From sequence record PZ445440.1: a stretch of 64,000 bases of DNA; one strand, given 5' to 3'. The notes beneath the pieces were generated by a model. It was not told where the DNA came from and did not search any database. It worked only from the letters and a program-made list of their open reading frames with translations. Position numbers and translations under genes: made by a program. Within the stretch, counting starts at the first letter, position 1, and every line of letters starts with the position of its first letter. Origin of the DNA: a phage. Below are positions 4,105 to 38,012 of this stretch, piece after piece.

Positions 4105-5040
4105 TTATTCTGCAAATAATTCAGTAACGTCTGAAATTACTTCATAACGACAAGTACGCATCTTAGCATCACCATAGTCAACCGGGATGGATACAACATC
4201 ACGTGGATGAACTTTAACTTTCACAACTTTATCTGAGCTTGAACCAAAGTGGCGAATATAAGATTTAGCACAAACGTGGAGACCGCGAGAACAGGTTTGA
4301 GTATCATCGTCGTTAACTCGAGTACGAGGCATTGAAACAACTTTACCTGGGGAGTTATCAAATGTACCACTATAGCAGTCTAAATAGTCCTTACGAACTA
4401 CTTTCCATGCATAGAAATGTCCGTCTTCAGTGATTTCAATATCATTTGCAACCAAGAAGTCGAATAAACGTTGTACAGCTTTTTCGCTCGGGTTTTCTAA
4501 CAGGTTTTCAAGGAACGGCAGATAGAATTTAAAGTCTTCACCTTTTTCCATGGAATCAATAATACGGTTAACCAGTCCTGAACGAATCTCTATACCTTGA
4601 TAAAATAAACTACCACCTTCAATAGTAACATTACCATCAACAAACTTAGTAATAGCTTTCTTGACGTTAATAAGTTCGACAGCTTTACTAAGGTTTCCTG
4701 CGACCAGATTAGCTTTAATTTCTTCAAAATTTGCATGACTTGATGGGGTCGCATTGTATGCTACGCGTCCTTCAATAATTGAAATAAATTTAGATGACGC
4801 GTTCCATACGATTTCAGGACGGTGTCCGCCGATAATAGGTTCATCATTTTCTGGGATCTGTTCTTCGTCTTCAAATTCAGCTGCTTTCTCTTCAGCTTTA
4901 AAATTCTTAACAATCTTACGAAGAGTATCTGTTGAAATGTCGAAGTAATCGGCAATTTCTTTACGAGTCCATTTGCCTGATTCAACCAGGCCGTAAGCTT
5001 CTAACTGTTCTTCTTGGGACAAGCATTTAATATTGTACAT
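4105..5040 (-). CDS. rIIB: rIIB membrane-associated protein
   Basis: 311 aa (T4 rIIB 312 aa as I recall); adjacent to rIIA; synteny. Confidence 0.85.
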   Translation of the reverse strand: MYNIKCLSQEEQLEAYGLVESGKWTRKEIADYFDISTDTLRKIVKNFKAEEKAAEFEDEEQIPENDEPIIGGHRPEIVWNASSKFISIIEGRVAYNATPSSHANFEEIKANLVAGNLSKAVELINVKKAITKFVDGNVTIEGGSLFYQGIEIRSGLVNRIIDSMEKGEDFKFYLPFLENLLENPSEKAVQRLFDFLVANDIEITEDGHFYAWKVVRKDYLDCYSGTFDNSPGKVVSMPRTRVNDDDTQTCSRGLHVCAKSYIRHFGSSSDKVVKVKVHPRDVVSIPVDYGDAKMRTCRYEVISDVTELFAE

Positions 5041-27468: not shown

Positions 27469-28612
27469 GGTCGTTTTCTATATCTGCTGCAGATGGAGCA
27501 TCAGAAGTTTTAACTGGAACCTTAGTTGTTGCTTTGCAATTAATAAGGTCGTTAACAGCGTCATCAACTTCTTTAATAGAAGAGATAGCACCTAGTTTAT
27601 ATTTGGTTTCAATTGCATCTCGGAAAGGTTTGTGTTTAAACAACGGTCCCCAGAATTCTACACAATCAGTAGCTTTAGCACGCCACGATTTCTCTTCACG
27701 AATCATTTCACCTGTTTCTTCGTCAAGGAATTCACGAGCATACCAACCAGCTTTAGGCTTAACTACAAAACCAATTTCAGTTGCCATTTCTAACAAGCCA
27801 CTGAATGGATCAATACCGCCATCAAAATTAACCGTGATTGGGAAAGTAGATTTCTCTTTAACTGTACGAGATTTTTCTGCTTTCAACGTGAAGTCATAAC
27901 CGGTCAATTCTGTACCTTCTTTAACCTGACGTTTAGAGATAAAAAATACCGTGTTGGCAGAGTAAAGAATACCTGTACCACCACCCATAATCTCTTTAGG
28001 ATATAGTCCGCCGATTTCCATTGCTGTATGGTTGATTGCAACACACGGAATATCTTTAATAGTCAGATAAGGAGTCACAATGCGGAACAGAGATTTAAGT
28101 GCCTTAGCACGAGACATATCACCTACAACTTTTTCGTTCAACGCATCTTCGGTTTCTTTCTTAGATGCAGTATTACCGATTGAATCGATAAAGATAATAA
28201 CTTTATCACCGCGTTCAATAGCGTCAAGCTGATTAGTCATATCGACTTTAAGTTGTTCGACAGACTGAATTGGTGTATGAACTACGCGGTCTAAATCAAC
28301 ACCCATCGAACGGAAGTAAGATTCTGAAGCACCGAATTCTGAGTCATAAAACAAACAGATCGCATCTTTATATTTCTTCATATACGCTGCGACCATAGTT
28401 AGTCCAAACAATGTTTTAAAATGTTTAGAAGGTGCAGCAAAAATAGTCAAGCCTGATTGCAATCCTGCATTCAGAGCACCACCTAGTGCAATATTCAACA
28501 TCGGAATACGAGTAGGGACTTCATCACGATTATTAAACAGCTTAGACTTAGTCAAGTCTGCAGTCATTTTAGAAGTAGAAGCTTTAATCAGACGAGATTT
28601 TAAATCAGACAT
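27440..28612 (-). CDS. uvsX: UvsX recombinase (RecA/Rad51 family)
   Basis: 390 aa; MSDLKSRLIKASTSK... and WYAREFLDEETGEMIREEKSWRAK match T4 UvsX from memory. Confidence 0.95.
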   Translation of the reverse strand: MSDLKSRLIKASTSKMTADLTKSKLFNNRDEVPTRIPMLNIALGGALNAGLQSGLTIFAAPSKHFKTLFGLTMVAAYMKKYKDAICLFYDSEFGASESYFRSMGVDLDRVVHTPIQSVEQLKVDMTNQLDAIERGDKVIIFIDSIGNTASKKETEDALNEKVVGDMSRAKALKSLFRIVTPYLTIKDIPCVAINHTAMEIGGLYPKEIMGGGTGILYSANTVFFISKRQVKEGTELTGYDFTLKAEKSRTVKEKSTFPITVNFDGGIDPFSGLLEMATEIGFVVKPKAGWYAREFLDEETGEMIREEKSWRAKATDCVEFWGPLFKHKPFRDAIETKYKLGAISSIKEVDDAVNDLINCKATTKVPVKTSDAPSAADIENDLDEMEDFDE

Positions 28613-28665
28613 TGTATTTTTCCATAGGCATCATTATATTTTACTCATGTTTAAAAGATAAGATG

Positions 28666-28693
28666 ATTATATACTAAGGGTTATACAGCATTT
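28666..28693 (-). promoter_or_regulatory. candidate MotA-dependent middle promoter for uvsX
   Basis: Minus AAATGCTGTA (MotA-box-like, one mismatch to TGCTTtA) followed 12 nt later by TATAAT. Confidence 0.35.
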
Positions 28694-28710
28694 AAAACTT
28701 TAAATGGCTC

Positions 28711-29259
28711 TTAACGAGCCCATTTGATGATTTCTGTAATCAAATCATTACGTTCGCTTGCATTAAATCCTATAACTTTGTTAGCACCATCATGATTAAG
28801 TAATTGATACGTTTGGATTTTGTTATGAATTGCAAACTCTTCAAAATGTGAAATGACTGTATTAAAACCGAATGAAGACAAAGTAATAAGGTCGTCTTCA
28901 AAACTTTCAGTCATTTCGTTACGTGTTAAAATAATTGTGAACACATCATGGTTTTGGCAAAGACGAATATAATCCTGTTCATAAACGTCAAGAACCGAGT
29001 CCGCATCTTGTCGAATACGTCCATAAACCCAGTTACTAATATACCCACGGTCTAACAGATAAATCTTAGTAGGGTCTAAATAATTCAACATCGTTTCGAA
29101 ACAGCCAACTTCGTTTCGAGACTTAACATCGAAACGCCCATCAACTGTTCGTTTAGGGAAATCAATCTTTACATATCTTTCACTAATTTCCATTACGTCA
29201 TTAATGAAAGTTGTTTTACCAGCATTATCCGGGCCGTCTACTAAAATAATTTTAGCCAT
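28711..29259 (-). CDS. P-loop nucleotide/nucleoside kinase-like protein (thymidylate-kinase-like fold)
   Basis: 182 aa; Walker A ILVDGPDNAGKTT and a DRGY motif (YLLDRGYISNWVYG) reminiscent of dNMP kinases; GAGGAA SD; sits in the T4 beta-gt slot. Confidence 0.6.
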   Translation of the reverse strand: MAKIILVDGPDNAGKTTFINDVMEISERYVKIDFPKRTVDGRFDVKSRNEVGCFETMLNYLDPTKIYLLDRGYISNWVYGRIRQDADSVLDVYEQDYIRLCQNHDVFTIILTRNEMTESFEDDLITLSSFGFNTVISHFEEFAIHNKIQTYQLLNHDGANKVIGFNASERNDLITEIIKWAR

Positions 29260-29260
29260 T

Positions 29261-30160
29261 TTATTCCTCGATTACGACATCTTCGTATTTAGGTATATTA
29301 TACGGTGAAGAAATTAAAGCATTAAAGTAGATGAACTCACCAAGACCTGGATGGAATACTTCTTCAGGATTTTCGAAATATTGAATCTTCGGACGTCCTT
29401 TAAGAATTTGATAGTACTCAGTTTTAGTTGGTTTAAAAATTCGAATCAGCGCTTCTTCAGGATACTTATTTCTGTCGAAGCTATTATTTGGATCGGTTAT
29501 ATAAAGCGGTTGACCTAATTGAATTGCACATTCAACCACTTGTTCAAAACGATAGCATGGGTCACTAATTCGAAATGGATGAAAAATACCATCTAGATGA
29601 ATAGGAGCCAAATCACCTACAAGACGCTGCATGATGGAAGGACGTATAACTTTCTGGGTTATGATAATCTTATTACCATCGGCACCTGCGTTAACCAGCA
29701 CTTCTTTTTGACGTTCATTCAACACAGTAGTTTGAAGTGAACGATTAACAGACAACATATCGGTTTTTAAGAATTCGTCAATATAAAAACGTGGTTTATT
29801 AGGGTCTGCAGTGATATTGAAATTGAATTCTACATCAAAAGCGCCGTCATATCCAGTGATATCTGTGATTAGAAAATCACAATCATAATAAGCAATTAAT
29901 GAATCAACCACAAATTCATTTTCAGACCAGAAATATTTACGAGTGTTATACGCGTTATCTTTATACCATAATGGAACAAACTTAAATTCTGGGAAAAGAC
30001 GTTCACATTCTTTAATATCAGATGCATTACGTGGATATGTAATCACATCACCCGGATTAGCACGGTGCAAATGAAGTTGGAAGTTGCCATCCTTAAGGAT
30101 AGCATACTGTCCAGTTTCATAAGACCGCATACTCAAGATAGGTACGCGGAAAATAGCCAT
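29261..30160 (-). CDS. hypothetical protein (299 aa), candidate novel DNA sugar-transferase
   Basis: No recognisable motifs; translationally coupled to gene 42 (stop/start overlap); occupies the beta-gt position. Confidence 0.6.
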   Translation of the reverse strand: MAIFRVPILSMRSYETGQYAILKDGNFQLHLHRANPGDVITYPRNASDIKECERLFPEFKFVPLWYKDNAYNTRKYFWSENEFVVDSLIAYYDCDFLITDITGYDGAFDVEFNFNITADPNKPRFYIDEFLKTDMLSVNRSLQTTVLNERQKEVLVNAGADGNKIIITQKVIRPSIMQRLVGDLAPIHLDGIFHPFRISDPCYRFEQVVECAIQLGQPLYITDPNNSFDRNKYPEEALIRIFKPTKTEYYQILKGRPKIQYFENPEEVFHPGLGEFIYFNALISSPYNIPKYEDVVIEE

Positions 30161-30876
30161 TAGTCAAGGAATCCTTTAACATAATCAAAATCACGTTCAA
30201 ACACATGGGCACTTACCATGGTATGAGTATAATCACCAACTTCTACACCACATTCGTTAGCGATATAATGAAGTAATTTTCCTTGGAGATAAAAATCCAA
30301 CTGCATAACAACAGCACAGTTCTGAGAACGCATATGACAGTGGGTATAAAGCTTACCATCACGAATATAATAAGTCACTGAGTCAGTACATGGATATTCA
30401 AGCGTTTCGTCTGAATCAAGCAAAGCCTGATCAGAACTTTCTAGAATTTGGAACACAACTCTTCGAGAGTTAGGCTTCTCTTTAAGTTCTTTTAGAAGAG
30501 CTGGTAATTGGGCCGCAATGCGAGGACCGTAGAAAGTGTTGAAGTTCGCAGGCAAAGCATCTGATTTTGGTTTAGAAATAAATTTAGCGACATTAGGATA
30601 TGCCTTAAACGCTTCTTCTGCATCAGTACCACCAGAAATCATAAACTTCCAGAAGTCTTCGGCATATTCATAAGAGATGCGGTTAATACGTGGGTCGGTC
30701 ATTTTGAATGATGATGGAGTGTCAACAACTACTGTCATAGACCCAATTTCATTACAACGTCCAATACGAGAATCAGTTACGAATTCCGGGTTTTCTAAAA
30801 TTTCACGATTGACTGCTTTAAATGCGGTTTGAAAATCTGCGGCTTTGATATATTTCATTGTGTTATGTTTTCCCAT
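30160..30876 (-). CDS. 42: dCMP hydroxymethylase gp42 (thymidylate synthase family)
   Basis: 238 aa; thymidylate-synthase-like region HCHMRSQNCAVVMQLDFYLQ; synteny upstream of the uvsX block. Confidence 0.7.
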   Translation of the reverse strand: MGKHNTMKYIKAADFQTAFKAVNREILENPEFVTDSRIGRCNEIGSMTVVVDTPSSFKMTDPRINRISYEYAEDFWKFMISGGTDAEEAFKAYPNVAKFISKPKSDALPANFNTFYGPRIAAQLPALLKELKEKPNSRRVVFQILESSDQALLDSDETLEYPCTDSVTYYIRDGKLYTHCHMRSQNCAVVMQLDFYLQGKLLHYIANECGVEVGDYTHTMVSAHVFERDFDYVKGFLD

Positions 30877-30918
30877 GTTTACCTCAATACAATTTATTAT
30901 ATACTCGATTCGTAAAGC

Positions 30919-31158
30919 TTATTTGAATTTCTTGGCAGTGTTGATATACCGTAAAGCTTCAGCATCGATACTTCCAAGAACACTATGAAGAAATGCATCA
31001 GCGTAGTATTCTAATTGAACAGGTTCTTTAATCACTTTAGCCGCTTTGGTTTCAAACAGGCCCATCAGGGCCTTTTTAAGAATTTGTTCGTTGCTGTTAA
31101 TTTTAATAGTCAAAATCTCTTCATTAAGTTGGTGGTTAAAAGTTTTTCTAGAAATCAT
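30919..31158 (-). CDS. hypothetical protein (79 aa)
   Basis: ORF with ATGA overlap to upstream gene. Confidence 0.55.
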   Translation of the reverse strand: MISRKTFNHQLNEEILTIKINSNEQILKKALMGLFETKAAKVIKEPVQLEYYADAFLHSVLGSIDAEALRYINTAKKFK

Positions 31159-32315
31159 TCCGGGTACCTCAAAGCGTCGTCAGAGTTAGTTATATCAATA
31201 ATAGATATAGAATTTTCTGATAACCCATTTTTAGATAACTGACGTTTATAATATCTTTCACAATATGTACACGTCGTCCCGCAGATTTCATTAGCACAAT
31301 CGAAATCTGGATGTCTGAACCACCTTTTTTCTAAAAAGCCATCTAACAAAGAGGTTTCAATATTTACTGTATGTGAAAACTCAGTTTCGTTTTCAAGAGT
31401 GAAAATAGTCTCTAAAGGCTTCCACAGTTCTAACAAATTACCTTCAAACTTTTCAGAAGCGTATGCTTCAAGAACTTTCAAAATGTAGTCTGTGCTACCT
31501 GTACGTCCTGAAACTTTGAATTGAGTGATACCAATATCATTATAAAGTTTCAAATCTTGGGGACGAACAAAACGAGTTCTCAACCAGTTAAATGGGTCTG
31601 TATCACGAGCTTTAATACAGTGCTGCATTGGATACCCGTTTAAGGATTTAGCATCATCAGCTGTAACATCAGTACTATGGAAAATATAGCAAGAGTCACG
31701 ATAGCTACAATGTGTTGTATACCCTTTACCAGCATTAGAACAGAACTCATTTACAAGAACTTCAAATATTATATTGTTCTTATTGCAAAACTCTGCTGCA
31801 CGCTTCAGGAAAGAAACTGAACGGTTCTTATGAATTCCACAGCAGACCTTTTTGATATTATATTGGTCATGCAAGTATTTGATTTGAGTTACAGCATCGA
31901 CATGTAGAATTGTTGAAACTTCAATCTCAATGTCTTTATTGACTTCACGAACAATTTCCATAACAACAGGGTTAGCGATAGTAATACGCCATACGCCTAT
32001 TGACCAAAGATACTGAACATAATCCTGAATAGCTTTCTTCTTCCACTCAACTAGTTCTCTTTTTGAACCAGGATTTATCGTGTTGAGTGTATAGTTAAAG
32101 CAAATACCTAATTCGTTACAACGTTTAACGTAATCTTCTAACATCTTTTTGTCAACGTCAGGAAGCCTAAAATCAGGTCTGGCTGCTACAAAAGCCATTT
32201 CTCTTGTAGAGCCGTATACTTCATTTATCAAGCTATTAGGATAAGTTTTATTGAGCTCTACGATTTTATCAAGAAGAGCTAAATCAAAATTCGTTCCGAT
32301 TTTAAAAGTATTCAT
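31155..32315 (-). CDS. Cys-rich protein of unknown function (386 aa); weak peptidase-U32-like resemblance
   Basis: Cys clusters (EVLVNEFCSNAGKGYTTHCSYRDSCY; CANEICGTTCTYC); loose resemblance to the U32 signature region; not verifiable without a profile search. Confidence 0.6.
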   Translation of the reverse strand: MNTFKIGTNFDLALLDKIVELNKTYPNSLINEVYGSTREMAFVAARPDFRLPDVDKKMLEDYVKRCNELGICFNYTLNTINPGSKRELVEWKKKAIQDYVQYLWSIGVWRITIANPVVMEIVREVNKDIEIEVSTILHVDAVTQIKYLHDQYNIKKVCCGIHKNRSVSFLKRAAEFCNKNNIIFEVLVNEFCSNAGKGYTTHCSYRDSCYIFHSTDVTADDAKSLNGYPMQHCIKARDTDPFNWLRTRFVRPQDLKLYNDIGITQFKVSGRTGSTDYILKVLEAYASEKFEGNLLELWKPLETIFTLENETEFSHTVNIETSLLDGFLEKRWFRHPDFDCANEICGTTCTYCERYYKRQLSKNGLSENSISIIDITNSDDALRYPE

Positions 32316-32371
32316 TTTTTTGCATCTCGCGTTAATTGATGCGATGGTTTTTGCAGGTCTTACTTAAATTA

Positions 32372-32758
32372 TTATAGATTCGGTTTATATGATTTAAATG
32401 TTTCGAATTCGCCTTTATTCATAAGAGCTTTGAATTCGTCAGGACGCATAGCTTTGTCGTCGATAATCCAATCATATACTGGTTTATGTGTTAGCAAATT
32501 ATGGTACTTCAATCCAATGTTTGCTAAGTTCTGAATCAGACTTGGGAGAATGTCGATTGCTATACGACCAGGACCTACTGACTTCATACCGCGAGCAGTG
32601 TAAAGCGTTATGGTATGCCCTGCATCATACAGGGCATTAATGGCAGACACCATTTCGACGTCTGGTTTGAAGTTCACATAATCACGGTTGTTATTCCACT
32701 CTGTTATACAATCATCGACATCAAAACAAAGATTAAGCATGTTTTCTACACGGTGCAT
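32372..32758 (-). CDS. HAD-superfamily phosphatase (small, cap-less)
   Basis: Motif I FDVDDCI, motif II ITLYTARG, motif III/IV K...DWIIDDKA; ATG overlaps the stop of the upstream NTase/kinase gene. Confidence 0.7.
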   Translation of the reverse strand: MHRVENMLNLCFDVDDCITEWNNNRDYVNFKPDVEMVSAINALYDAGHTITLYTARGMKSVGPGRIAIDILPSLIQNLANIGLKYHNLLTHKPVYDWIIDDKAMRPDEFKALMNKGEFETFKSYKPNL

Positions 32759-34443
32759 TAGATTCGTTCCCATTGATGAGTGATATCGCCACCGATTGGA
32801 CGATAGGAAACACCAGTTTCTTTATCAGTTAGTACCCATTTACCAGGATTTTTTGTAATAAGAGTAGCCGTTACAGGTTCTGCTACGTCATAACTAATAG
32901 AGCCGTCTTGAAGTACACGGCCCATGTTACGTAATTGCTTAGTCAGAAGTTCCATACCTTTATAATATGCGGCTACCGCTTTAAGTGGATTATTCTTGAA
33001 ATAACCACCTAATGCAATCCAGATAATTGCCACCGCCAAATGATGATACTCGTTAAACGAACTCATCTTTCCATATTTGTAAATTAATGGATTGATGTTA
33101 ATAGTCACATTACAAGTTGTTTCATCAATAGTAAACTGTCCCCAGGTCGGATTAGCATTGAATTCATCATAACCTGAAACAGCGTAAAGCACTTTAGCTT
33201 CATCGTACAATTTTGGCCCGTAAATCTTGGTTTCACCAAAATATCCACGAGGGTCGATAAACTTGACTTCGCCATTATCAGTAATCATAGTATTACTGAA
33301 GTTCGGGTCACCATGAATAACAGAGTACTGTCCCTGAGAACGGTTATGATAACGAATAAGGTGTTCTAAAGCTTGTTTCAACATTGGCTTCAGACGTCCA
33401 ATCTTAGTGTAGTTCACATGTGTGATTTTACCAAATGAATCAATCAATGGTTGAATGCTTTCACAACGATCAATAACTTTCGTATAGAATTCTTTAGTGA
33501 AATCACGACGGACAGTTTCAGGACTTACAAAATAAGTGTCTGTGCTGAATTTCAGTGCATCTAAAATTGCATCAACAATTTGTGGACGAGCAAGACTTGA
33601 TTTGGATTTAATATATTCAAATGCCGGCTTACCTTTAATGCGTTCCATTTCAAAGTTATTTTCATTAACAGAAACTAACTGAGGAACTGAATCTGATTTC
33701 ACTTTCAAGTACCACGAAATCTCATCTTTCTGAAGAGCTCGACCCTGTTCGGTTAATGCGAATTTAGTTACAGTTTCTTCACCAATTTCAACTGCATTAA
33801 AACTACGATTAAGTTCACGAACTTCATGAGCTTTTTCAAGTTTAGGCATATCACCTAAATCAATTAGATTCATAAGCTCTGATTTATTGAATGCGCCGCT
33901 GTAAAGGAATTCTACGAAATCACGTCCTTTGCAGTATTCATGAATTTCCTCATCAGTAGAACCCATATAGAATTCCCAGTCTTTGAACTGATAAATTCCT
34001 ACAACATTACCGCCTGTTGCACCTACATTAGTGATATTTTCACCGTCGAAATTATATCGACATTCGTCACCCTTAACATAGATTGCGTTAACATTCCAAG
34101 ACCATGAACCAAAATCAGGAATAATATCACACCAGTTAACAATTACGTTATGGCCGTCTAAATCTTTGTGTAATTTAGCAAGAGCATAAGCAGAACCATA
34201 CGCTTCATCAACTGTACGAATAGTCACATTGAACCCTTCTTGCTCACAATAAGCTCGAACAGTTTCAGCAAATTTTGAATGAACTACTACAATAATTTCA
34301 TCTGCGCCAAGGTCAGAATAAATTGTATACAAATTGCTCAGAATAGTGTCTTGTTTATAGTTAACAAGCACCTTAGGAATATGATGCGTTATTGGATACA
34401 AACGAGTTGCCAGTCCAGCACCAAGAATAACAGCTTTTTTCAT
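32758..34443 (-). CDS. bifunctional sugar-1-phosphate nucleotidyltransferase / anomeric sugar kinase (LicC-like N-domain + APH/choline-kinase-like C-domain)
   Basis: 561 aa; N-terminal MKKAVILGAGLATRLYPITHHIPKVLV (NTP-transferase signature); C-terminal VIHGDPNFSNTMI (Brenner HGDxxxxN) and FIDPRGYFG. Confidence 0.8.
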   Translation of the reverse strand: MKKAVILGAGLATRLYPITHHIPKVLVNYKQDTILSNLYTIYSDLGADEIIVVVHSKFAETVRAYCEQEGFNVTIRTVDEAYGSAYALAKLHKDLDGHNVIVNWCDIIPDFGSWSWNVNAIYVKGDECRYNFDGENITNVGATGGNVVGIYQFKDWEFYMGSTDEEIHEYCKGRDFVEFLYSGAFNKSELMNLIDLGDMPKLEKAHEVRELNRSFNAVEIGEETVTKFALTEQGRALQKDEISWYLKVKSDSVPQLVSVNENNFEMERIKGKPAFEYIKSKSSLARPQIVDAILDALKFSTDTYFVSPETVRRDFTKEFYTKVIDRCESIQPLIDSFGKITHVNYTKIGRLKPMLKQALEHLIRYHNRSQGQYSVIHGDPNFSNTMITDNGEVKFIDPRGYFGETKIYGPKLYDEAKVLYAVSGYDEFNANPTWGQFTIDETTCNVTININPLIYKYGKMSSFNEYHHLAVAIIWIALGGYFKNNPLKAVAAYYKGMELLTKQLRNMGRVLQDGSISYDVAEPVTATLITKNPGKWVLTDKETGVSYRPIGGDITHQWERI

Positions 34444-34484
34444 GTTGTGGTCCTCATTGGTAAGTAGAAGTATTGTACACTATT

Positions 34485-34628
34485 CTAGTTAAAGCATTCA
34501 TACTTCGCTTGTAGTCCAATCATAATCCATCCAATTACAAGTGTTGGAATCATTACTGGAGCCGTTAAGCTCCAGTAGATAGTCATGACAAGCATCAATA
34601 GTAAAAGTCCTATTGTTATTGTTTTCAT
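34485..34628 (-). CDS. small membrane protein (47 aa)
   Basis: Hand translation MKTITIGLLLLMLVMTIYWSLTAPVMIPTLVIGWIMIGLQAKYECFN; ATGA overlap with the isomerase stop. Confidence 0.4.
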   Translation of the reverse strand: MKTITIGLLLLMLVMTIYWSLTAPVMIPTLVIGWIMIGLQAKYECFN

Positions 34629-35260
34629 TGTTCGCCTCGTAACATGGCACCTAGTGCGCCGCCTGGATGGAACTTAAGGAAATCATTAGAGGTAAATCCA
34701 CGTTCAGACGAAAGGTTGATAGCGAACGTATCGATAAGCGCTAACAACAATGTAGTAGACATTGTCGGAGCTAAAGAGTTCTCGTCAACTTCTACCGCGA
34801 TACCGGTACAGAACGTATAATCAAAAAGAGCTTCGTATTCTTGTGGAATGTCAGGGTTACAATGTAACAGAATCTGTTTAACCTGAGGACGAATCATACG
34901 AAGATGTTTAGCAACACCTATCATTTCTTCAGTCTTACCAGAACGACTGATGTGAACTAATACATCATTAGGTGCAATAAATCCTGCGTCGCCATGAGAA
35001 TAATGCCCGGTGTTCAAGTACATACTCGGGATACCTAGTGAAGCAAAAGTCTCGGAAGCTTTAGTTGCGATATTAGCATTCTTACCAACACCTGTAATAA
35101 TTACACGACTTTCGTAATTACTCAGTCCAGGGCGACGAAGAGTTTCAAGAATAGCATTATATCGGGCAGGGTTTTGACTAATTATTTTAGCCATAGTGGC
35201 AAGAGATGAAGCTTGTTTTACGATTGCGTCAATAGCGATAGTGATTGGTGTAGTTTTCAT
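34625..35260 (-). CDS. D-arabinose-5-phosphate isomerase, SIS domain only (KdsD/GutQ/KpsF-like, no CBS pair)
   Basis: 211 aa; strong similarity to E. coli KdsD SIS domain from memory: GVGKNANIATKASETFASLGIPS, HGDAGFIAPNDVLVHISRSGKTEE, LAPTMSTTLLLALID, HPGGALG. Confidence 0.85.
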   Translation of the reverse strand: MKTTPITIAIDAIVKQASSLATMAKIISQNPARYNAILETLRRPGLSNYESRVIITGVGKNANIATKASETFASLGIPSMYLNTGHYSHGDAGFIAPNDVLVHISRSGKTEEMIGVAKHLRMIRPQVKQILLHCNPDIPQEYEALFDYTFCTGIAVEVDENSLAPTMSTTLLLALIDTFAINLSSERGFTSNDFLKFHPGGALGAMLRGEQ

Positions 35261-35300
35261 ATTTCTCTCATTTAATTAGTTGGCCATCCTTGGCATTATA

Positions 35301-38012
35301 TCAAAAATCAAACATATCGAACAGAGATGCTTTCTTCTCGTAATCGAGTTTCGCTGCTGATGTGAATCCTTCAAGTGGTTTAATAAATGTCTTCTCAAGG
35401 AGAACAGTGTAGTCCATCCAATGAAGTACATCATCTTTGATTAAATCAGTGATTTCCGTACCAGAAGGCCATGCGATACATTTATCACCGAACGGGTTTC
35501 CATCACGTAAAGGCAGAACGTATACCTTTTCGCCTTCTACAACTTGTGGAGCATCAATATTACCTTTGATAGCTCGGTTATATGTCAGAATTCCACGAAT
35601 ATGGAATGGGCATTTAGGTCCTGGATATCCACCTACATCATATTTAGCAATGTTATTCGCAGAAGATACCGACGCGATGCTAATATAATTCAATTGACGG
35701 AATTCTTTTTCAAACTCTTTAAAATATTCTTGTAATGATTCTTCACCTTCTTGAAGCATACGACGAATACATTCTTTAAGAGCTTTCTGTACTGCTTTAG
35801 GGGTCGAAGATTTCTGAGTTTCTAGACCCATGATTTTGAGTTTAGGCTCAGCGTAACGAGTACCTTCCATATCCCACACGTTTAATGCATAACGTTTCTT
35901 ACCAGTCCAGAATCCACCAATACCTTTAGAACCGAGCGGAGGACCAGCGATAGCTTCTCGGTCCATGAACATTAAGTGTTGTTTATTGTTCATGTATTCA
36001 CACATTTCACGGAAACCTCTATCAATAGCAGGTTCCATACGTTCACGTGCAAACTTATCTAAGAAGTCTACCCAATGGTTGGTATCACGGAATTTAGATT
36101 CACCAACCTTATCGATAATTTTATCAGCAGATACGTAAATAGAGTCGGTATCACCATAAAGAACGAAAGCTTCACCTTCTGTACCACAAACTTCATTCAG
36201 ATATTCATTAACTTTACGTTCAATCCACTGTAAAGCCATTTGCCCAAATGTTGTGATTGCAGTAGCATTACGCAAATCATAATAACGGAACCAAACGTTT
36301 CCAAGTGCACCATAAAGTGAGTTGATAAGCAATTTACGGTTAATTTGTGCAGTCATACCTGCAACTTCAGTACGTTGAGCTCTAAACAACATTTCATTAA
36401 GAGATTTAGCAGACAACTTTTTAATCTTTTCTTTAATCTCATCACTGAAGTCGAAACGATAATCAACATCTAATGGTTCGTCAACAGAAAGATTAGGATT
36501 ATGCAATGCCTCTTTAATTATTTCACCATTACGTTGAGCTGCAAGCATGTAACCTTTATGTTCTTTACGTTGATTAAAGACCTTAGTGATTTCAGTTGGA
36601 ACTACACCATCACGGTCTTTATAATACATCATGCCGTTAGGAGAGCAACTGTACACATCTGAAGGACGTTCAGCGATTGCGTTAATATAATCATGCAGTG
36701 GAGCTACTTTAAACGTTCCTGCTATTGTTTCCGGGCTAATATTCACTTGGCGAATAATACTTGGATACAGAGATGTAAGGTCGAAACTCATTACATATTT
36801 GTATCGATTTGGAATAGGTTCCTTAACAAAAGCGCCAGGATAAGGTTGAACCGGATGAGAACGACCTTGTGGAATCACCTTGTTCTGCTCTTTAAGGCTA
36901 TTAAAAATAATAGCATCCCATGTTTTAATTGGGCTAAACACAGATTGAATCTGTATCTTAGCATAATAACCCATGTCCAAACTCAAGTTGATGAACTGAC
37001 GCTTAGCATCAATTTGCAATACACGATACACGTCGATAATGTTATAAGAAATATATCGTTGGTGATTGCTTTCACGAAGCTTAGAAATAGGGCCGTCATA
37101 TTTCAGTTTACCGACGTTCAATTCAAATTCTGAAATGTAATCCAGAGAATACGACGGTTGATTGGTAAAAGAGAATTTTTTGTAAAGGTCAATGTAATCA
37201 AGAACAGAGATACCGAACAATGTAATGATTTCACGAGAACCATACATGTTTTCGATAACTTTAACACGAGTTTTACGATGTGGTGATAAACGTTTCGCAG
37301 TAGATTCGCCAAAAATATTCTTGATTCTGTTATACACATATGGAATATCAAATGACTCAACGTTCCATCCAGTCAAAATGACAGGAGTTTTCTGTTGCCA
37401 GAAGTTGAGATATTCCATCAACAATTCTTTTTCGTTATCGAACGGCATATAAACAATTTTGTCGATAATTTCGGATGGAACTTCATCACCGCCTTGTTCT
37501 TGAAGCTTAGCAGCGATTTCAATAGACCATTCTTCTACATTACCATATGGAGAATTCAATAGATCAAATACGTAGAACCTGTCGTCAATTGAGTCATAAT
37601 GGGTGATAGCATCAATCGGATGTTTTGCTTGTGACGGCTCAGGGAACCCATCCGGAGATGTTACTTCGATGTCGAAGTTAGCCACACGAATTTTTGTATG
37701 GTCGTATTTGATTTCATAGTTATAAGTGTCAGACAAATACGCTAATTTGAAATCGTCCATGCCAAGTGCTTCAAGTCCGATATCTTCCATGCGTTTAATC
37801 CATTGTGAGGCATCACGCATATTAGCGAACAACTTACGAGTACACGGCTTACCGTAGATATCGAAATATTTCGTAGCCTGACTTTCTGGACAATGAGCAA
37901 ACAGTGATGGTTTATATTCTACTTCACGAGTACGTTCACGGCCATTAGAATCGATGTAACGTTCAAAAATTGAATCACCAATCTGTTCAACCGTTAAGTA
38001 AAATTCTTTCAT
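35301..38012 (-). CDS. 43: DNA polymerase gp43 (family B, 3'-5' exonuclease)
   Basis: 903 aa; exo motifs FDIEV, polymerase motifs DxxSLYPS and YGDTDS; sequence matches the RB69 polymerase from memory. Confidence 0.97.
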   Translation of the reverse strand: MKEFYLTVEQIGDSIFERYIDSNGRERTREVEYKPSLFAHCPESQATKYFDIYGKPCTRKLFANMRDASQWIKRMEDIGLEALGMDDFKLAYLSDTYNYEIKYDHTKIRVANFDIEVTSPDGFPEPSQAKHPIDAITHYDSIDDRFYVFDLLNSPYGNVEEWSIEIAAKLQEQGGDEVPSEIIDKIVYMPFDNEKELLMEYLNFWQQKTPVILTGWNVESFDIPYVYNRIKNIFGESTAKRLSPHRKTRVKVIENMYGSREIITLFGISVLDYIDLYKKFSFTNQPSYSLDYISEFELNVGKLKYDGPISKLRESNHQRYISYNIIDVYRVLQIDAKRQFINLSLDMGYYAKIQIQSVFSPIKTWDAIIFNSLKEQNKVIPQGRSHPVQPYPGAFVKEPIPNRYKYVMSFDLTSLYPSIIRQVNISPETIAGTFKVAPLHDYINAIAERPSDVYSCSPNGMMYYKDRDGVVPTEITKVFNQRKEHKGYMLAAQRNGEIIKEALHNPNLSVDEPLDVDYRFDFSDEIKEKIKKLSAKSLNEMLFRAQRTEVAGMTAQINRKLLINSLYGALGNVWFRYYDLRNATAITTFGQMALQWIERKVNEYLNEVCGTEGEAFVLYGDTDSIYVSADKIIDKVGESKFRDTNHWVDFLDKFARERMEPAIDRGFREMCEYMNNKQHLMFMDREAIAGPPLGSKGIGGFWTGKKRYALNVWDMEGTRYAEPKLKIMGLETQKSSTPKAVQKALKECIRRMLQEGEESLQEYFKEFEKEFRQLNYISIASVSSANNIAKYDVGGYPGPKCPFHIRGILTYNRAIKGNIDAPQVVEGEKVYVLPLRDGNPFGDKCIAWPSGTEITDLIKDDVLHWMDYTVLLEKTFIKPLEGFTSAAKLDYEKKASLFDMFDF

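Follow-up and report, generated by a model that had tools for sequence, protein, structure and literature searches.

A cap-less HAD phosphatase of a Mosigvirus-type phage, identical to HY126 AfhF, and its probable place in a kinase-first UDP-arabinofuranose pathway

Directly behind a gene for a fused sugar nucleotidyltransferase/kinase, the phage DNA analysed here (record PZ445440.1, a stretch of 64,000 nucleotides referred to below as the window) carries a short gene for a phosphatase-like protein. The question that this locus raises is which phosphate the protein removes and at which point of sugar activation it does so. The original prediction had placed it on arabinose-5-phosphate, or another sugar phosphate, ahead of anomeric re-phosphorylation. 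Our analysis leads us to conclude that the gene very probably encodes AfhF, a cap-less, Mg2+-dependent HAD phosphatase specific for D-arabinofuranose 1,5-bisphosphate, which works in a kinase-first UDP-arabinofuranose pathway. The identity of the protein, the conservation of its motifs, its fold and its gene context were observed in the present analysis.

The window protein is identical in 128 of 128 residues to PDB entry 9IQW, AfhF of Escherichia phage HY126, which was released on 2025-07-16 under a title that names a 'D-arabinose 1,5-diphosphate phosphatase AfhF', and by this identity it belongs with the HY126 enzyme. The surrounding 6.6-kb stretch matches Escherichia phage ChristianSchoenbein (Bas46; MZ501056.1; Straboviridae, Tevenvirinae, Mosigvirus) at 100% identity. 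Bas46 is a different isolate from HY126, and its GenBank entry adds five N-terminal codons to the protein; about 150 further Mosigvirus genomes match the same 6.6 kb at 98% identity. By tblastn, AfhF has matches in 384 records of phages, of which 192 belong to Escherichia/Shigella, 57 to Acinetobacter, 25 to Klebsiella and 20 to Synechococcus, with Serratia, Proteus, Yersinia and others also represented; this places the gene far beyond chance. A metagenome-scale protein search returned 48 clusters, nearly all of 119-130 aa.

The reading frame and its start are defined by the following features.

32372..32758, minus strand: afhF coding sequence, 128 aa plus stop (ATG-to-TAA ORF 32758..32372); cap-less HAD phosphatase, very probably the D-arabinose-1,5-bisphosphate 5-phosphatase
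32756..32760, minus strand: TAATG junction of the afhE stop and the afhF start, read from the sequence
32759..32773, minus strand: five-codon N-terminal extension MGTNL of the 133-aa GenBank form, taken from the annotation and probably untranslated

Translation of the minus-strand frame (32758..32372) opens with MHRVENMLNLCFDVDDCITEW and gives 128 aa. The afhF ATG (32758-32756) and the TAA stop of afhE (32760-32758) have one base in common, and the sequence thus confirms both the 128-aa frame of the original prediction, with its ATG overlapping the stop of the bifunctional gene, and the position of the phosphatase gene immediately downstream of that gene; the strand, which the prediction had left unstated, is minus. 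A Shine-Dalgarno-like GGGAA lies 9-13 nt 5' of the TAATG Met, within Trp-Glu codons of afhE. The GenBank form of the gene (MZ501056, bas46_0145, 'putative phosphatase') is 133 aa long and starts 15 nt further upstream, at 32773, with an ATG that is formed by adjoining Gln-Trp codons of afhE (CAA-TGG) and is not preceded by a Shine-Dalgarno-like sequence. The PDB construct corresponds to the 128-aa form, which is also the choice of most gene callers (P0001, 106 member sequences); most afhF homologs begin at or after the TAATG Met, and Dhakavirus IME08 and Pectobacterium PM2 both retain the HRVEN residues that follow this Met. We rejected the 133-aa start because its ATG is a by-product of afhE codons, lacks a ribosome-binding signal and lies outside the crystallised construct, which begins at the TAATG Met; the Bas46 record probably starts afhF 15 nt too early.

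The catalytic residues of the protein were assessed in an alignment of 23 AfhF homologs (36-84% identity), in which the HAD motifs fall as follows.

32705..32725, minus strand: HAD motif I, FDVDDCI, residues 12-18, with D13 and D15 invariant; it aligns to DLDGTLT of 1xpj
32588..32611, minus strand: HAD motif II, ITLYTARG, residues 50-57, containing T54; R56, G57 and the following M58 are invariant
32450..32485, minus strand: HAD motifs III and IV, KPVYDWIIDDKA (K92-PVY-DWIIDDKA), residues 92-103

All three strings on which the original prediction had relied are therefore present, and the residues expected to carry out catalysis (D13, D15, T54, K92, D100 and D101) are invariant among the 23 homologs, as are P93, Y95 and D96. 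1xpj likewise retains the lysine and the DD pair (GKP...IDDRA), and on the strength of this conservation the motif III lysine is best assigned to K92, not to K84. In the AlphaFold2 (AF2) model of AfhF (pLDDT 84, pTM 0.81; four strands and three helices), D13 and D15 follow the strand formed by residues 9-13 and T54 stands at the end of the strand 49-53, which gives the arrangement of a HAD enzyme, with a DxD motif ending strand 1, a motif II threonine, a motif III lysine and a motif IV acidic pair on a Rossmannoid core. Residues 14-33 form a loop or flap and residues 54-86 a loop and one helix, so that neither the C1 nor the C2 site contains an insertion large enough for a cap; the model thus agrees with the cap-less (C0) class originally proposed. 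After 9IQW, structure comparison of the model ranked highest a set of small HAD proteins and phosphatase domains of the HAD type (1xpj, 2obb, the Pnkp phosphatase domain, HisB-N and GmhB), the nearest structures being proteins of 121-126 aa.

Sequence models place the protein less firmly. A Pfam scan, at E <= 0.01 and also at E <= 10, matched no family, the sole curated sequence-family match was TIGR01689 at 4e-13 (49.3 bits, with the cut-off at 162), and no curated HAD model in Pfam or NCBIfam was thus matched above threshold. A search of the PDB with a profile of the 23-sequence alignment retrieved nothing beyond 9iqw and 1xpj, and PHROG 1238 matched AfhF at 1e-42. By sequence alone the assignment to the HAD superfamily is weak, and in view of the Pfam and TIGR01689 results it rests on motifs and structure.

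The genomic context of afhF is a block on the minus strand, located between DNA polymerase gp43 and UvsX and absent from T4, in which the transcription order is isomerase, 47-aa ORF, afhE, afhF, U32-like gene, 79-aa ORF, thymidylate-synthase homolog, 299-aa ORF and dNMP-kinase-like ORF. The neighbours that bear on the function are the following.

34625..35260, minus strand: SIS-domain D-arabinose-5-phosphate isomerase, KpsF/KdsD-like (TIGR00393 8e-32, KdsD 4e-30; PDB 3etn, 2xhz; PMC13326640)
34443..34625, minus strand: 47-aa ORF bas46_0147 (144-nt ORF), between the isomerase gene and afhE
32758..34443, minus strand: afhE, 561 aa, N-terminal sugar-1-phosphate nucleotidyltransferase and C-terminal kinase-like domain (Pfam NTP_transferase 8.5e-10, residues 3-99)
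31155..32315, minus strand: U32-peptidase-family gene directly downstream of afhF (Pfam PF01136, 7e-11)
30160..30876, minus strand: thymidylate-synthase homolog, annotated 'dCMP hydroxymethylase' in the Bas46 record (near-identical to PDB 9iqc, 9ir2 and 9iqu, E 4e-162)

AfhE shows, in addition, weak matches to kinase families over residues 308-409 (Pfam) and matches to sugar-1-phosphate nucleotidyltransferases of NCBIfam and to PHROG 4098; neither for AfhE nor for the U32-like protein did sequence searches find a close solved relative. Annotated ORFs similar in size and position to bas46_0147 (144-147 nt) occur in Serratia CBH8 and Yersinia TG1. The near-identity of the thymidylate-synthase homolog to these three deposited structures fits the crystallisation by He et al. 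of a flavin-bound dCMP-hydroxylase homolog of HY126, as relayed by Lee et al. (PMC13326640). The RB69 homolog is described in the same paper as a flavin-dependent dCMP 5-hydroxylase, and RB69-type phages are shown there to contain arabosylated 5-hydroxycytosine, not 5-hydroxymethylcytosine (Lee et al., NAR 2026, PMC13326640). The near-identity to these structures, together with the RB69 account, identifies the product annotated as 'dCMP hydroxymethylase' as a predicted dCMP 5-hydroxylase, and the annotated name, like the assumption of hmC behind the original framing, is outdated. Between gp43 and uvsX, afhF is linked to afhE, the arabinose-5-phosphate isomerase gene and the gene of the dCMP 5-hydroxylase.

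For the substrate, the order of the steps and the Mg2+ dependence we draw on the title of 9IQW and on a secondary summary of He et al. (Nat Chem Biol 2026) contained in Lee et al. (PMC13326640). According to that summary, AfhE of HY126 first phosphorylates Araf5P to Araf1,5P2, the Mg2+-dependent phosphatase AfhF next hydrolyses Araf-1,5-bisphosphate to Araf1P, and AfhE then turns arabinose-1-phosphate into UDP-arabinofuranose, which is used on 5-hydroxycytosine in DNA. Lee et al. also equate RB69 gp51 with AfhF and include Bas46 among the arabinosyl-5-hydroxycytosine phages (PMC13326640), and in a phage Tn-seq preprint Bas46 DNA is described as bearing 5-arabinose-arabinose-hydroxy-cytosine; the preprint uses Bas46 as a proof of concept only and holds no gene-level essentiality data for bas46_0145. 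As far as these sources go, the arabinose-nucleotide pathway to which the phosphatase had been assigned, and the removal of the 5-phosphate from an arabinose phosphate, both stand. The predicted order of events does not, since 9IQW names the 1,5-diphosphate and the text of PMC13326640 puts the kinase first.

In the pathway that emerges from these sources, the SIS isomerase would convert ribulose-5-phosphate of the host into arabinose-5-phosphate, the kinase domain of AfhE would phosphorylate C1 to give arabinose-1,5-bisphosphate, AfhF would take off the 5-phosphate, leaving arabinose-1-phosphate, and the nucleotidyltransferase domain of AfhE would activate this product to UDP-arabinofuranose, AfhE thus acting both before and after AfhF. 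Phage arabinosyltransferases would then put the sugar onto the 5-hydroxycytosine of the phage DNA, blocking restriction enzymes. By analogy with the general HAD mechanism, D13 would attack the 5-phosphate to form an aspartyl-phosphate, D15 would protonate the leaving O5 and subsequently activate a water molecule, T54 and K92 would hold the phosphoryl group, and Mg2+ would be bound by D100/D101 together with D13 and the backbone of D15. A minor additional activity of AfhF on arabinose-5-phosphate is conceivable but improbable.

With the kinase of AfhE acting first, as in the summary of He et al. (PMC13326640), the phosphatase comes after the kinase, in parallel with GmhB in the activation of heptose, and the logic of the arabinose pathway is that of GmhA/HldE/GmhB, not that of a salvage route. 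A similar arrangement is found in cyanophage S-SSM7, whose AfhF homolog (38% identity) adjoins a PfkB kinase and a cytidylyltransferase-like gene, the two halves of a HldE-type enzyme; this context hints at a phosphatase that acts after the kinase. The cluster of this Synechococcus phage (2441..6599 of its locus sequence, with the AfhF-like minimal HAD at 4501..4836) also comprises, along with its PfkB carbohydrate kinase and cytidylyltransferase-like nucleotidyltransferase, a cupin, a 2OG-Fe(II) oxygenase, an NAD epimerase and a methyltransferase, and by its gene content it is a predicted heptose-type NDP-sugar pathway.

The same three enzymes could accomplish the same net chemistry in the reverse order, as in a salvage route, with the HAD enzyme releasing free D-arabinose from arabinose-5-phosphate, the kinase phosphorylating the anomeric carbon and the nucleotidyltransferase activating arabinose-1-phosphate. 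This order is the one given in Table 1 of Lee et al., in which RB69 gp51 'dephosphorylates Araf5p to Ara' and the kinase domain 'phosphorylates Ara to Araf1p', and it would suit a kinase domain similar to the APH/choline-kinase type of anomeric or small-molecule kinase (weak matches in Pfam; 3ham and 6hwl in PMC13326640). The table is nevertheless at odds with the text of the same paper, which cites the experiments of He et al. for a kinase acting before the phosphatase (PMC13326640), and the title of 9IQW names the 1,5-diphosphate as the substrate of the identical protein. The context of the cyanophage homolog, beside an HldE-like kinase/nucleotidyltransferase pair, likewise points away from salvage and towards a type of pathway with a bisphosphate. 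A free-arabinose intermediate would, moreover, leak into the host pool, and we know of no dedicated D-arabinose route in E. coli K-12. We therefore hold the salvage order to be improbable. It is the order of the original prediction and corresponds to an earlier, purely computational proposal that survives in Table 1 of Lee et al. (PMC13326640); a reasonable guess, it has been superseded by the experimental report.

A phosphatase acting on nucleotides or polynucleotides, such as a Pnkp-like 3'-phosphatase or a 5'(3')-deoxyribonucleotidase serving nucleotide-pool control or nucleic-acid repair, would be another way of reading the gene, yet the identity of AfhF to Pnkp and nucleotidase structures (13-15%) is no better than that to GmhB or HisB-N, afhF is always linked to the arabinose nucleotidyltransferase/kinase in the T4-like lineages examined, and the identical protein was deposited as a sugar bisphosphate phosphatase (9IQW), which together make a nucleotide substrate highly improbable. 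The name under which many records of the family are filed, 'capsule biosynthesis protein', and its sole curated match, TIGR01689 'capsule biosynthesis phosphatase', would suggest instead an EcbF/BcbF-type enzyme, that is, a host-takeover or moron gene acting on precursors of host surface polysaccharides. We give this next to no credence: the score of 49 bits falls far below the cut-off of 162, the gene is embedded in a DNA-modification cluster between DNA polymerase and UvsX, and the name is a label transferred by homology. A phosphatase acting on the arabinose bisphosphate after the kinase is thus the reading that we retain.

Comparison with characterised and structurally known relatives helps to delimit the AfhF group. 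RB69 gp51 (ORF051c) and gp81 of Acinetobacter phage DLP3, named in PMC13326640 as the AfhF homologs of arabinosyl-5-hydroxycytosine clusters in T4-like phages, have 1xpj as their best structural match too and occupy the same place relative to the nucleotidyltransferase/kinase gene, but they were characterised only computationally by Lee et al.; the DLP3 lineage has diverged, Acinetobacter homologs being about 58-64% identical to the window protein. GmhB, the D-glycero-D-manno-heptose-1,7-bisphosphate 7-phosphatase, shares 11-16% identity with AfhF and is larger (about 180-190 aa against 128); its substrate is a heptose, whereas that of AfhF is a pentofuranose, the kinase of its pathway is PfkB-like while that of AfhE is protein-kinase/APH-like, and in AfhF, unlike GmhB, motifs III and IV are just 8 residues apart. 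AfhF accordingly falls outside the GmhB/HisB-N subfamily. The identity to 1XPJ (Vibrio cholerae APC26283), 2OBB (BT_0820) and the EcbF/BcbF proteins of TIGR01689 is 20-30%; these proteins have a threonine in motif I and their functions are uncharacterised; with 49.3 of the 162 bits needed, AfhF belongs to a related subfamily, not to TIGR01689 itself. KdsC (YrbI), the Kdo-8-phosphate phosphatase, is likewise a cap-less HAD enzyme downstream of an arabinose-5-phosphate isomerase (KdsD), in this case in host metabolism, and resembles AfhF in fold (Foldseek probability 0.99; 15-20% identity), but it acts on Kdo-8-phosphate rather than on an arabinose phosphate and has a different subfamily architecture.

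The order in which the nucleotidyltransferase/kinase gene precedes the HAD gene is the same in each of the seven T4-like lineages compared (Mosigvirus, Dhakavirus, Winklervirus, Tegunavirus, Bragavirus, Acajnonavirus and a Klebsiella phage), with differences at the junction itself. An exact TAATG is found in Bas46, IME08, Yersinia TG1 and Proteus SJ_PmiM, while in Serratia CBH8 the two genes overlap by 17 nt; Acinetobacter Acj9 and Klebsiella kv_tblp8 have no TAATG, the genes being separated by spacers of 57 nt, with its own GAGGA, and of 117 nt, respectively. A sigma-70 promoter scan of 28600..35400 gave 22 promoter-like sites against 24.7 expected and a terminator scan of the same interval 4 terminator-like sites against 3.9 expected, both at chance level, and the T4 late-promoter motif TATAAATA does not occur in the cluster. 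No promoter- or terminator-like signal above chance therefore parts afhE from afhF, and nothing in these scans argues for a separate afhF promoter. Co-translation of afhF with afhE through TAATG is plausible in the enterobacterial lineages, to judge from the junctions, and is not universal. In the Acj9 spacer (4432..4488 of the Acj9 locus sequence), a near-perfect inverted repeat, GTTATGTAGT...ACTACATAAC, surrounds TATAAT and is followed by GAGGA; it could be a separate regulatory element in place of the overlap of the enterobacterial phages.

Motif I of the window protein contains a cysteine, Cys17, at D+4, a position where threonine is found in at least 90% of the aligned homologs, and among the 23 aligned sequences it is shared just with that of Pectobacterium phage PM2 (P0002); from the alignment it appears to be a lineage-specific replacement of threonine in Mosigvirus and Pectobacterium PM2. 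The original prediction had noticed this residue correctly, but its suggestion that the chemistry may be affected finds no support, for the Cys form is the one that was crystallised and reported active, which makes it unlikely that the residue matters, and relatives tolerate threonine. One may still speculate that Cys17 tunes the activity or makes AfhF redox-sensitive (or else reflects neutral drift) and that the AfhF-type minimal HAD is a general bisphosphate-phosphatase module reused in other phage NDP-sugar pathways, such as those of the roughly 20 Synechococcus records, in which its neighbours are an HldE-like split kinase and cytidylyltransferase in place of an AfhE. We regard this as unlikely, and neither the tuning nor the reuse alters the role of the gene in the window.

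As one of three enzymes that divert ribulose-5-phosphate of the host into the UDP-arabinofuranose donor, AfhF contributes to the arabinosyl-5-hydroxycytosine that shields the DNA of Mosigvirus-type phages from restriction enzymes and alters which defence systems see it, and DNA arabinosylation is for this reason relevant to the choice of therapeutic phages. The function of AfhF is already known from an identical protein with a released crystal structure and a published activity, and for that reason the gene adds no new biology; the practical value of the analysis is in annotation repair, concerning the afhF start in Bas46, the names of the AfhF family and the 'dCMP hydroxymethylase' label. The family circulates widely under wrong names, as 'phosphoheptose isomerase' (RefSeq, PHROG 1238), 'capsule biosynthesis protein' or 'polynucleotide kinase'. 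AfhF has neither an SIS nor a kinase domain, and the labels 'phosphoheptose isomerase' and 'capsule biosynthesis protein' are wrong.

Two minor observations concern the gene directly downstream and the C-terminus of AfhF. The U32 members RlhA, TrhP and UbiU/V are associated with hydroxylations that do not use O2. RlhA, in particular, makes ho5C2501 in 23S rRNA (PMC5727448), and by analogy the U32-like protein (31155..32315) could serve as a back-up source of 5-hydroxycytosine under anaerobic conditions; its RB69 homolog is labelled merely 'sugar or heterocycle reductase' (PMC13326640). The TG1 and kv_tblp8 clusters contain a gene annotated 'peptidase', CBH8 and SJ_PmiM have ORFs that match in size and position, and the Acj9 and IME08 clusters have none. 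The C-terminus of AfhF (32372..32386, minus strand) is a Y-x-P tail, YKPNL, which lies outside the HAD core and whose consensus PYxPxx is kept in most homologs. In the cap-less KdsC, the C-terminal tail extends to the neighbouring active site, and a similar role of the Y-x-P tail within an oligomer of AfhF is, by analogy, conceivable.
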